64,000 bases of DNA from NCBI RefSeq assembly GCF_057098645.1, contig NZ_CM169472.1; one strand, given 5' to 3'. Made by a program: the position numbers. How positions within the stretch are numbered: the first letter of the stretch is position 1; each line of letters begins with the position of its first letter. Of this stretch, positions 24,901-30,900 are shown one piece after another.

Positions 24901-27900
24901 TGCTATACACGCTTTCAGAAGTGAGAGAAAGAAATATCTTTCTCTGTACCCAACAGTAATGGACACTTTGAGTGTATTAAAAAGTAAAGGGTGTTATATT
25001 GTCGCGTATACTGAATCCAAAGCTTATTACTCCAATTTCCGCTTAACAAGATTAGGATTAGATGGTGTGATTGATGTCCTTTTCTCTCCTGAAGATCATG
25101 AAATCCCTGATGGTGAGAAAAAACAAGATAAATATAATCTAATGCTGACAAAGCAAGAATATACACCTATTGATGAAATTAAACCAAACCCACAACTTCT
25201 TCTGGACATAATAAAATCAATTGGTGCCACACCAGAAGAGTGTGTATATATAGGTGACAGTGAAATGAAAGATATAGAAATGGCCCAAAAAGCAAACGTA
25301 TCAGATGTTTTTGCAAGCTATGGAACGAATCATTTTGAAGAGAACAAGGAGGGATATGAATTACTCCGTGCGGTAACCCACTGGACTGATGCTGATGTTG
25401 AAAGGGAAAGAAAAATTAAAGAAAATGCCTTCGGAGCAAAACCCACATATGTAGCCAAACAATTTTCAGATATTTTGTCTTTTTTTGAATTTACAAAATT
25501 TAAAGGAAAATAGAATGAACGATCTAGAATTAAAGAAACATGATGACGCTATAAAATTAGAAAATCTCAAGTTGAAAATTGATATCTGGAAGACAGTTGT
25601 TGACGTTCAGAAACATTTTAATGATCTTGAGATGAAGGTTAGAAACTTCGGAATTTTGATCTTGTCTGCATTTATTGGTGCAATTGGTGTAAGCTTTAAT
25701 TCCGGCGCTGAATTTATAGCCTTTGGCAATCATTACTCTGTTGCTGCCATTCTTGCTTTCGGGGCATCTGTTGTTTGGTTGTTATTTTATTTTGTTGACG
25801 TTTACTGGTATCACCCATTACTTCTTGGAGCTGTAAAGAAAGGTTCAGAACTCGAAAAAGAAATTGCATCCGACATCCCAGGAATTAATCTTACAGAAAC
25901 CATAGGAAAAAGTAGCCCAAAAGATATTTTGCTCTGGAAAAATATGCATAGTACTGGAAAAGCTAACCTTTTCTACTTTGGGGTTTTAGCTGTTCTGTTA
26001 ACTATTTTTATTTCTCTACTGTGCTTTAAAGCCCCGCAAAAGACAAATCAACTAAATGAATTAAATATTAAAGCAAATTGCACTAGAAACAGTAATTACA
26101 ATGGAGTTAATTGCATTATCGCATCACAGCCAAGTGACAACAAATAGTGCACTTTATCACTCTTTACCCCAACTGCATGTACTTACCTTGTGAGCACAGA
26201 GACGCGCTATAAATAAACACTTTACTGCTGGCGGGCGGTGCTTTCCCCGCCTCGCCCGCCCGCTTTGCAGGGCGGTTTTAATGCAGTTGCACAGTCACGC
26301 TCAGGCTGCGCCGGGAATGGCGCGGTCTGCAGAGAATGAGGCAGGAAAACGCATGCAAAGCCATGCACCTTATCGATGCATGGCTTTTTTCAGTAAAAAC
26401 GGGAGGATTTTCGGGGAATTTTACACAGACTGACGTGATGCCAGTTGCGCACTTTTACGCGAAAAAATCATGTTCTGCGCAGGGGTGAATTTTTCACGGC
26501 TGTCATCCACCGAAGCCGCGTCAGGCCTGAATCCGATGGTCGTTAAAATGTCGCTATCCTGTGCGGAATAATTAATTTTTTCACCCTTCGCAAGCCAGGA
26601 CAGGAGGGCTTCACGCAGGGCATCTGTGGCACGCTGTATGGCACAGTTTCGGGCAATGGCCGTCAGCTCACTGTAGCCCATCAGCTCCGGTGCCAGTGCC
26701 GCCGCCAGTGCTGTGCCGTGCTGCTGCATAAAATCATTCAGCCGATCGCGGATGCTGATGTGCTGAACGGCTTCATGCGAACGAATATAACGACCGGCGG
26801 CCTGATTCACCTGCCATTTTCTGACTTCGATAATATTGCGTAATTCGTCCAGGCGACTGACGTTTCTGCCTTCTCCTGACAGAAGCCGCAGATATTCCTG
26901 TTCGGCCGCAGCCAGCTCATTTTTGCGTTGCAGCCATGCTGCTTTGTTATTCTGACAGGTGTCAAAGGCCTGCTGTAAGGCTGTGCTTTCCATCGTTATC
27001 TCTTTCTCATCATGCTGAAGAATAAAAATACGGTGTGCGGCGACGGCCGGGGTTAACCGGCAGCCCTCATTCCAGACGCAGCGAATATGATTGTGTTTTT
27101 AACCGTACTGGCGGCAGTTCCTGTTTTTCATGCAGGCTTTCTGCCAGTTCGTCCGGCGTGACCGGGCGGACAATGAAGCGGTTGATGGTCTGAAGCGTTT
27201 TAAACACCAGACCACAGCCCGGATCCGTGCACACATAAAAACGCTCGGTGACTTCCTGAGACAGACGCCGCGATGTTCTTGACAGCGCAAGGCCTTTACA
27301 TCTCCGACAACAATATCCGGTAACAAGCATTCTTTTCGGGCGCTTCATGCTACCGGAGGCTGACGTCAGTGAATCGCGGTATCTCTGTTTGCCTGAAATG
27401 TATTCCATTCCTGAATCTTTACAGTCAGAGAAAAAGCTTTCACTCGCTTCAAATGTCGCAGAGCAATAAATATTCCGGCACTGTGCAATCATTATCTTGG
27501 TGCCATCGTCCATGAAATGTGCGCGACGGGTGTGAGCAACATGTCCACACGACGGGCAGTAAATCATGACAGCAGTCCTCTGGCCTTAAGCACTGCTCCC
27601 TGCTGGTCTATTTTGTCCTGCCACACCTTGCGCTGTGCCGGTGTGCCTGCCACCTCATAATCCATGTGCGGGAGTGTTGCCGCTGACAGTCCGGTCAGCC
27701 GGAGAACCGGCTCGCCGGTGAGGCTGATTTGCATCTGTTTTATTTTCTGTTCCAGCGATGATTTCACCTGCTGCGTATTCCGCTCTATTCGATCACGGAT
27801 TGGCATCGAAGTCCGATCAGCGATTCGCATCCATTCGATCAACCGGGAACTTAACTTTTTCTACCGCTTTTTAACGCGTTTTTTCGCTGCTTTCCACTAC

Positions 27901-30900
27901 CGGGGGATTTTTCCTCAGTGACTCTCCCTGAAGGACCACTCGGTGTGAGTTATGTACCAGTCTGTCCAGGATGGCATCTGCTGTTGTTGGGTTCTCCATC
28001 AGACCATGCCATTTATCTACCGGGAACTGGCTTACCACTATCGTGCTGCTTTGTCCGTAACGATCCTCTATGAGCTCCAGAAGGTCATTACACTGGGCGT
28101 TACTTAACTGTTCCAGCCCCAGATCGTCCAGGATTAGAACCTGTATTTTTTGCAACTGTTTCAGATATTTCAGCCAGCTGCCATCAACACGTCCCTGAGC
28201 CAGTTGTTCCAGTAATCGCCCGGTTCTACAGTACCGGACGCTGTGTTTCTGTCGACATGCCTGTTCGCCCAGCGCATTGGCTATCCAGCTCTTGCCACAT
28301 CCTGTCGGACCGGTTATCAGCAGGTTTTTCCTGTGGGTTATGTAGTGGCCGTTCAGCAGTTCTCTCATCTGTTCAGCCCGCAGACCTCTTGAGGCCGGAT
28401 AGCGCAGCCCTTCCGGTGTTGCCTGGTATTTCAGGCCGGCATTTTTTCTCAACCGTGCCACACGGCTGTTTTCCCTGCTCAGAAGCTCGTCATCAACCAG
28501 CAGCGTCAGCCTTTCCTCGAACGACAGTTCGTCGTAGGTCTGAGGCGTTTCCCGCTGCCGTATCAGGCTCCCGGCCATCGCCGGGAGTTTCAGTTGGGTC
28601 AGTTTGTTTAACAGGTTATCACTCATACTGTTGTTCCTTCTGTCAGTGGTAGTAGCCCGGACCACGCAGGTTTTCATGCTCTGAAGCATATGCCGGATGT
28701 TGTTCGCCCTGGCGGGATAATGGAAGCTCCAGGTTCTCCCGATGGTGACGCAGCAGATTGTCGATAAAGCGTCTGTCAGGGGCGTTATAGTGCAGGGCAA
28801 CGTAACAGGCCTTTTCCAGCCGTTCCGGGCCGTATTTTTTCTGAAGTGCCAGCAGCCCCAGAACTGCACGATAAGCCAGTTCCGGATGGGGTTTTGCCTT
28901 CAGCATGGATTCAACCACCCGGCCTGTGGACGGGCCCGTACGTTTTCCCTGCTCGATCAGGCGTTCCGGTGTCCATGTCCCGTGCTGCCGGTGGCGCTCT
29001 GGCATGTGAAGCGGATTGGTTGTGTGTTTATATTCATGTGTGCTGCGCGGATGTTGCGCCACACACTGCCCCTTGTGCCAGAGCTGTACCACCGACTGCC
29101 CCGCCTTCAGTGACAGACGCTGACCGACCAGTTCGTGTGGAACGGAGTACCAGTGACGGGCATATTCAACGTGGTAGTCAGGGCCAACCTTCACAGCTTT
29201 GTATTCCGTGTATTCATAAGGTGCCAGAGGCAGCGGAGAGAGTGCTGGCGCATCCAGTATGCGGAAGCGTTCTGCACGGGTTTGATTGCCGTACCCCTTC
29301 ATTGGCCGGTTATTCATGTCTGTCAGTAACTCCCTAAGGCGCGCATTCAGCGCCCTGAGCGTGTGGAAGGTTTCATTACGGATGCGGGCAAGAAGCCATC
29401 GTTCAACGATGAGGACGCCGTTTTCTGCTTTTGGTTTATCTTTAGGTTTGCGTGGTCGGGCCGGGATGATAACCGTGCCATAGTGCTCAGCCAGTGCCTG
29501 ATAACTGTCGTTGATGACAGGCTCATATCGATCGGCCTTTTTCACTGCGCTTCTGAGGTTATCGGGGATGAGCAGCTTCGGTACGCCGCCCAGGAAGGTC
29601 AGGCAACGGCTGTGGGCATTTAACCATGACATCATGTCCTGACCTTCGCACGCTTCAACGTAGGTATAGTTGGACGCCCCCATTACGGCCACGAAGATTG
29701 CCACGCGGCGTATCTCACCGGTGTCCGGATTAATAACAGGAACCGTAGGACCACAGAAGTCGATAAAAAGCTTTTCGCCGGCACGATGCTCCTGGCGCAT
29801 GGAGAGACGTCGCGTTTTTTTCCACTCCCGGTAGCAACGGCAGAAGTGCGAGTATCCCATCGCTTTGTTACCCGCCTGTGCCTTGTATTCCATCCACAAC
29901 AGTTGCCGCGTCACACCTGGTTTTCTCATTTCCGTATCGAAGTACAACATGTCAGGCATTACAAGCTCTGATGCAAAGGTGTCTTTGGGCGGAAAAATGA
30001 GTTTCTCCAGCGTGTCATGGGATATATCAGCAGGTAATGGCCATGACAGAGAAGAGGCTTTGAAGCGGGCAAGAACCTCAAAAACGGTTGAGGCGCTGAT
30101 GTGTAACGTCAGTCCGATACAACGGTTAGTCAGCTTCTTGTCGAACTTGAGCTGAAGGATCTTAAAACAGGTTTCCATAGTGCTCCTGGATTTTCTCTTT
30201 CTGGACATTGACGTCTCCACTGGTTTAAACACGGCAATGGAGACTGTGGTGAAAAGAGTTAATTCCCGGAGTGACTGGCAGGATGCCAATCAATGATCGG
30301 AAGCATGCCAAATCGTGATCGATTGTGATGCCAAACTGTGATCGGAGATGGATGCCAAATCATGATCGATTCGAATGCCAAACTGCGATCGATTCAGATG
30401 CCATTTTGCACCTGCTGCATGACAGCTTTATCGGGTGCGACGTAGCCCTGATGCCCGGTGGTGTTGGCGAGCGGATTTTCCTGTACCAGAATGCTCAGAT
30501 GCATTGCCCGGACAAGCGCCTCACAGGTTTCATTCAGGGCGTGTTCCAGCTCATGCTCTGCATACAGACTCAGAAGGTGATGATGTGCCTTCCGGTAGGC
30601 GGTGGCCGTGCTGTCACACGCCCCTTTCAGGCGTTCACGTTCGAAATTCAGCACCACGGCCAGATTGTCATATTCCTGTACCAGCTCCCGGCGTGCCACG
30701 CGCTCAATGTGGCGCTGTTTCAGCTCGTCGCTCAGGACACCACCGGCTGCACGAAAGGCCGTGCGCCAGTCGTCAGCGTCGTTTCCGTCGGCCTGCGCCA
30801 GCGCATTTTTTTCCTGCTCTGCCCGTTCAATGGCCGTGACGGTCTCATCCATCAGTCGGGCGTTCTCAAGGTGGGCGGCTCTGGCCTTTTCCAGTTGTGC

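Follow-up and report, generated by a model that had tools for sequence, protein, structure and literature searches.

Introduction

Classical sid mutants of the satellite phage P4 carry point mutations. P4 sid mutants form no small capsids, allow much more helper production and are themselves packaged only inefficiently, with three genomes per P2-size head (PMC6893505). In the Sid protein, residues 189–219 form a linker, residues 219–224 in helix alpha-6 bind the sir loop of gpN, and all three nms ("super-sid") mutations lie at positions 215, 227, and 234 (PMC7552001). The gene belongs to the core set of P4-like satellites, which comprises int, psu, delta, sid, alpA, epsilon, as well as alpha (PMC8628076). 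Here, we describe a P4-like satellite prophage located in a 64,000-nucleotide stretch of contig NZ_CM169472.1 (NCBI RefSeq assembly GCF_057098645.1; "the window" hereafter denotes this whole stretch), in which, in contrast to the P4 mutants, sid is physically split after codon 178 by an insertion sequence (IS). We consider it highly probable that a single transposition event put this element, identified below as ISSso4 of the IS21 family, into the sid gene of the satellite.

For the IS21 family, a terminal architecture with multiple repeats and an L1/L2 spacing of 23 bp has been described, and for the transposase IstA of IS5376 a solved structure and the catalytic residues are available (PMC10122671). 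A target-site duplication of 5 bp is the reported norm for both IS21 and IS5376 (PMC10122671, PMC11208146). The name ISSso4 is used for the element on plasmid pCT in its published annotation (PMC6361801).

A complete ISSso4 copy within sid

The inserted element extends from 27772 to 30410 (minus strand) and comprises 2,639 bp. Read in IS orientation, its termini are 5'-TGCAAAATGG...GAATACGCA-3', and both these ends and the length are the same in all of 19 independent copies, namely 17 independent insertions fetched from megablast hits, the copy of strain WWCOL-236, and the pCT copy. The megablast search, for which the region including its window flanks was compared with 5,426 complete E. coli genomes, returned a near-full-length copy at 99–100 % identity in 299 records, with the annotation "IS21-like element ISSso4 family". 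While the window copy differs from that on pCT at 7 positions in 2,639 bp (99.7 % identity), it shows no mismatch at all to copies in E. coli GF60 and 3R. On the basis of this near-identity to the pCT copy and of the invariant 2,639-bp ends, the element in sid is assigned to ISSso4. The likeness to the known copies (pCT, NC_014477, and about 300 full-length ones in complete E. coli genomes) extends to length, termini, nucleotide sequence (99.7–100 % identity), IstB (identical), and IstA (0–1 residue differences); the insertion site alone differs, with none of the copies examined sitting in sid.

The coding content is that of an IS21 element, that is, istA followed by istB, both on the minus strand and separated by a gap of 16 nt. 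Gene istA (28643–30178) encodes a DDE transposase of 511 aa, which scores 284.7 bits against the curated NCBIfam model "IS21 family transposase" (NF033546; cutoff 160) and in which D140, D206, and E252 correspond by alignment to the catalytic residues D124, D187, and E233 of IS5376 IstA (PDB 8q4d/8b4h). The AAA+ helper ATPase encoded by istB (27871–28626; 251 aa) reaches 257.8 bits against the corresponding model "IS21-like element helper ATPase IstB" (NF038214; cutoff 200), carries the Walker A motif GPTGCGKS at residue 106, and is identical to WP_001282653.1, labelled "IS21-like element ISSso4 family helper ATPase IstB" by the NCBI Prokaryotic Genome Annotation Pipeline.

The ends of the element are equally characteristic. 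On the istA-proximal side (30282–30410, minus strand), five direct repeats of about 18 bp are spaced by 22–24 bp and accompanied by the tip, with the five GATGCCAAAYYGTGATCG-type copies lying at 30282–30391, whereas the istB-distal region (27772–27831, minus strand) holds the repeat in inverted orientation as one good copy (27790–27807) and one degenerate copy. Altogether, GATGCCAAAYYGTGATCG has 6 matches in the window as compared to 0.18 expected, a number reached in no shuffle, and all of them fall within the IS ends. The repeat spacing is thus as in IS21, and the tips (TGCA... and ...CGCA) follow the TG...CA rule of the family. An initial annotation of the same DNA had already recognized an IS21-family istA–istB element interrupting sid and multiple terminal repeats at its ends, and both observations are borne out by these results.

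Reconstitution of sid

Both parts of sid are readable on the minus strand. The 5' fragment (30411–30942) contains codons 1–177 and 1 nt, and the 3' fragment (27564–27771) contains the rest of codon 178 through codon 244 and the stop codon, which overlaps the start codon of delta as ATGA. Removal of the IS together with one repeat copy (see below) joins 27564–27774 to 30419–30942 and yields 735 nt, that is, 244 codons plus stop. The initial annotation had placed the two fragments correctly to within a few bases, and their assignment to one interrupted gene is corroborated by alignment, as the joined Sid is 98.8 % identical to P4 Sid over residues 1–244 (3 substitutions, 11 nt differences). The joined gene also agrees with P4 (X51522 / NC_001609) in its 244 aa, in the order sid–delta–psu, and in its position relative to ori and cos; in P4, the equivalent site (10107) shows GCAGCAGGTG once. 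Since excision restores an open reading frame (ORF) that exactly equals an intact Sid allele found very frequently among public assemblies (4,353 index blocks), the IS is the only lesion in sid. In its interrupted state the ORF stops at 30394–30396 and encodes Sid 1–178 followed by QNGI (182 aa), and the part for residues 179–244 lies 2.6 kb away, devoid of a start codon of its own.

Predicted consequences for capsid size and operon expression

The truncated Sid lacks the end of the dimer knot, the 189–219 linker, and helix alpha-6. Because the insertion thus removes the linker and the helix that contacts the helper capsid protein gpN, there is strong reason to expect that the satellite has lost the ability to redirect the helper to small capsids, in agreement with the initial annotation, which had deemed such redirection unlikely. 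The product, Sid 1–178 plus QNGI, would let the satellite behave as a P4 sid mutant; it would form no T=4 capsids, exert no helper interference, and at best be packaged inefficiently as multimers in full-size heads. The satellite unit between the att cores measures about 13.1 kb with the IS and 10.5 kb without it, and its fit to either capsid size has presumably been changed as well.

Downstream of the IS in the same operon, delta (27067–27567, minus strand; 166 aa) is full length and encodes a protein 97.6 % identical to P4 Delta, and psu (26421–26993, minus strand; 190 aa) is likewise full length and 99.5 % identical to P4 Psu at the protein level. The translational coupling between sid and delta is lost, and polarity on delta and psu is plausible, so that their expression would probably be reduced. 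The initial annotation had considered alpha, psu, delta, cos, and int intact; this holds for their length, but, with the IS lying upstream in the sid–delta–psu operon, intact ORFs should give no guarantee of normal delta and psu expression. A search for an outward or internal sigma-70 promoter able to drive delta and psu found 0 sites in 27000–31500 as compared to 3.5 expected by chance, an uninformative outcome.

ISSso4 and sid have the same orientation, and the element starts 532 nt past the start codon of sid, hence downstream of the Delta/Ogr-activated late promoter Psid. Since the IS is co-oriented with sid and no terminator-like site is predicted in between, transcription from Psid could conceivably read into istA–istB and thereby couple transposase expression to late gene expression of the helper phage, although we regard this as improbable. 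If true, it would entail a burst of ISSso4 activity in precisely those cells in which phage and satellite DNA get packaged, and the same read-through would also decide whether delta and psu are still expressed.

Two points weigh against the predicted loss of Sid function and polarity. Firstly, a simple scan predicts no intrinsic terminator on the minus strand inside the IS, so that read-through into delta and psu is possible and the polarity proposed above may not apply. Secondly, Sid 1–178 would keep the trimerising stem (11–137), most of the dimer knot, and the contact made by the alpha3–alpha4 loop (161–165; PMC7552001), features that argue against its presumed inactivity. It is accordingly conceivable that the insertion had little effect, either in that Sid 1–178 still redirects capsid size or in that the satellite was already dead before the IS arrived, epsilon being independently frameshifted (see below), either before or after the insertion. 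We nevertheless judge this scenario to be unlikely, as the known sir and nms genetics all map to the contact of helix alpha-6 and the linker with the sir loop, which is deleted here, while the full length of the other core genes (97.6–100 % identical to P4) and the complete absence of differences between the IS and other copies both argue for recent rather than ancient decay.

Transposition and the target-site duplication

The insertion appears to be rare. ISSso4 was found in sid in none of the 5,426 complete E. coli genomes, the 182-aa truncated Sid product is absent from the gene-call index, and the species-representative genomes of GTDB do not contain the exact 28-mer of the IS tip. What comes closest is a pair of independent ISSso4 insertions in other P4-like satellites, WWCOL-236 (NZ_CP178552; L009 10548–13191) and GCA_040813075.1 (L024 5102–7740). 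They share the orientation of the window copy and hit the GGTGAACAG iterons of ori at sites about 12 bp from each other, some 250 bp upstream of sid. Unlike in the window, sid is intact in both, and the duplications are GAACAGT and GAACA.

This rarity, together with the multicopy nature of ISSso4 in many genomes of E. coli (as many as 34 places in one genome), could be taken to suggest that an assembler erroneously placed a repeated IS into sid. Such an artefact is, however, very improbable; both junctions are base-precise and show a 5-bp duplication of a length typical for ISSso4, which would not arise from a misjoin, and once the IS is excised the sequence is exactly that of a known allele. 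Transposition, in contrast, would account for these features by a textbook mechanism. IstA and IstB would cut the target at CCTGC, in codons 176–178 of sid, with a 5-bp stagger, the CA-3' ends of the IS would be joined to the target, and gap repair would duplicate the 5 bp.

The duplication itself is easily overestimated at this locus, as an identical 10-mer, CACCTGCTGC, occurs on both sides of the element (27765–27774 and 30409–30418). The 10-mer is found only these two times in the 64-kb window on either strand, the chance expectation for a given 10-mer being about 0.12 in 128 kb, and beyond the two copies the identity extends by 0 bases on both sides. In the left copy, the 5-bp duplication is preceded by 2 bases of the flank (CA) and followed by the IS tip TGC; in the right copy, it is preceded by the IS tip CA and followed by 3 bases of the flank (TGC). 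Because the IS ends fixed from the 19 independent copies include the tip bases, the true target duplication at sid is, by this comparison, the 5-bp sequence CCTGC, the two copies of which (27767–27771 and 30411–30415) directly abut the empirically defined IS ends. The target thus reads CA-CCTGC-TGC, and that its other 2 + 3 bases equal the tips of the IS, CA and TGC (plus strand), is best treated as chance. The initial annotation, which had noted the 10-mer as a possible but overlong target duplication, was thus right in reporting the repeat and in doubting its length, but the repeat is not the duplication.

A length of 5 bp fits well with the behavior of the element elsewhere. Among 18 copies including that in the window, the duplication comprises 5 bp in seven, 6 bp in eight, 7 bp in two, and 4 bp in one case; it amounts to 6 bp for the pCT copy and to 4–7 bp for seven copies from metagenomes. 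Overall, the range is 4–7 bp in the 26 other copies with both ends available, so that the 5 bp found here conform to the short duplications of the IS21 family, for which a range of 4–8 bp is reportedly given in ISfinder. Three full-length copies on metagenome contigs (L034, L052, and L061) have two ends without a matching duplication, which may reflect chimeric assemblies or recombination between IS copies. That the 10-bp repeat is itself the duplication, implying an IS of 2,634 bp and an unusually long 10-bp staggered cut, is virtually ruled out by the invariant termini, since, perfectly repeated and directly flanking as the 10-mer may be, its extra TGC and CA are part of the constant 2,639-bp element in all 19 copies whatever the flank, which leaves 5 bp here and 7 bp as the longest duplication among the copies examined.

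A preference of ISSso4 for CAG or for sites mimicking its own tips, which would have accounted for the 5 extra bases, was also considered and rejected. CAG was present in 13 of the 19 duplications of the first sample; this sample was biased, because the query held the window flanks and hits with similar flanks therefore ranked highest. The tendency is gone in an unbiased set of 38 distinct metagenome-contig junctions, about three of which contain CAG (counted by eye), and TG follows the duplication in one of seven.

Taken together, IS, target gene and type of satellite are all known, and the mechanism is a textbook one; the insertion is an ordinary gene knockout and no new system. It represents one more case of IS-mediated decay of a phage satellite and opens no new question; what is useful here is that the IS boundaries are now exact, the duplication length is corrected, Sid is exactly reconstituted, and an additional lesion in epsilon has come to light. 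For annotation purposes, this ISSso4 copy should be given direct repeats of 5 bp rather than 10 bp.

The remaining satellite

The satellite is integrated at the gene for tRNA-Sec (selC; 23156–23250, plus strand), the 3' end of which holds attL with the core starting from near 23230, and is delimited on the other side by attR (36354–36377, plus strand), an imperfect repeat of the selC 3' end (GACTCCTGTGATCT–CCGCCAAAC). Between these sites, all seven core components are present in canonical order, but two are disrupted, as the IS splits sid and a frameshift affects epsilon. From cos through psu, delta, sid, ori, orf88, the immunity RNA, epsilon, orf151, orf106, and alpha to crr, the DNA is 97–98 % identical to P4. 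Within this part, the cohesive-end sequence of cos is an exact 19-mer match (GGCGAGGCGGGGAAAGCAC; 26238–26256, minus strand), the primase-helicase alpha (33544–35877, plus strand; 777 aa) is full length and 99.2 % identical to its P4 counterpart, and orf88, orf151, and orf106 are full length with protein identities to P4 of 98.9 %, 98.7 %, and 100 %, respectively. The integrase (23413–24591, plus strand), a full-length ORF of 392 aa, is 38 % identical to P4 Int.

Apart from sid, the satellite is not fully intact, the initial annotation having missed a 2-bp deletion in an A-run at codons 4–5 of epsilon (32338–32625, plus strand), the helper-derepression gene of P4. At about 32346–32353, P4 and WWCOL-236 have AATAAAAAAG and the window has AATAAAAG. 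As a result of the deletion, the GTG start is no longer in frame, and upstream no start codon in the frame of epsilon was found, so that epsilon probably constitutes a second lesion of the satellite. Although homology reveals all seven core genes, the satellite should consequently be counted as sid-negative and probably also as epsilon-negative. We infer that the insertion in sid and the frameshifted epsilon mark a decaying or domesticated satellite, which keeps its integrase, replication genes, cos, and anti-phage cargo.

As for this cargo, gop, beta, and cII of P4 are replaced by other genes. Between int and cos (24641–26147, plus strand), intact ORFs encode a HAD-type hydrolase of 290 aa and a membrane protein of 220 aa, which along their whole length match the PADLOC models "Hydrolase" (6e-198) and "Hydrolase-TM" (9e-141). 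This pair, located in the P4 hotspot, is a known candidate anti-phage pair. The P4 immunity (CI RNA) region is represented by Rfam matches to isrK, c4-a1b1, and C4 antisense RNA at 31819–32095 (plus strand), and conservation within the right arm is lowest in the "cI ORF" that overlaps it, with a protein identity of 83 % to P4.

Genomic setting and relatives in O145:H28

The satellite resides at selC next to the locus of enterocyte effacement (LEE) of an E. coli resembling enterohaemorrhagic strains. The same layout of selC, a P4-like element, and the LEE was reportedly described in 1998 by Perna et al. for the cryptic P4-family prophage 933L of O157:H7. In the window, the left flank (14400–23150) matches several O145:H28 genomes of E. 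coli, RM13514 among them, at 100 % identity, and from the 5' part of sid into the LEE (eae) the identity to 12E115, likewise an O145:H28 strain, amounts to 99.2 %. Both strains share the order yicJ, selC, int, cargo, psu, delta, sid, orf88, epsilon, alpha, IS3 remnant, espF, and LEE, but their sid and epsilon genes are intact, unlike those in the window, and they carry GapS4a as cargo where the window has Hydrolase/Hydrolase-TM. The int allele differs as well (23413–24591 in the window as compared to 1030–2205 of L012), and the yicJ–selC–int stretch is only 89 % identical overall. Because this value stands against 100 % for the chromosomal flank and 98–99 % for the right arm, the left arm of the island (int and cargo) looks as if it had been exchanged, giving rise to a mosaic. 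A host other than E. coli, as might be suspected from the 94–96 % identity of the yicI–yicJ flank to some genomes, was rejected, since the low figure stems from the divergent int allele in the same alignment and the flank matches O145:H28 at 100 % identity.

The LEE begins immediately right of the satellite (37230–64000 within the window) and includes espF with proline-rich repeats (37230–38117), the intimin gene (44571–47393), and tir (48040–49704); the ORFs between espF and eae have the size and order of espB, espD, espA, sepL, and escD and match the O145:H28 annotation. Between attR and espF, at about 36690–37010, lies a degenerate remnant of an IS3-family transposase, with a pseudogene annotated at the corresponding place of O145:H28 genomes. 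A further IS3-family element is located between recG and gltS (12412–13625, minus strand) and encodes OrfA (108 aa) and OrfB (295 aa), the former presumably resembling that of IS629; it contains an Rfam match to the ALIL frameshift pseudoknot at 13228–13344 (120.9 bits).

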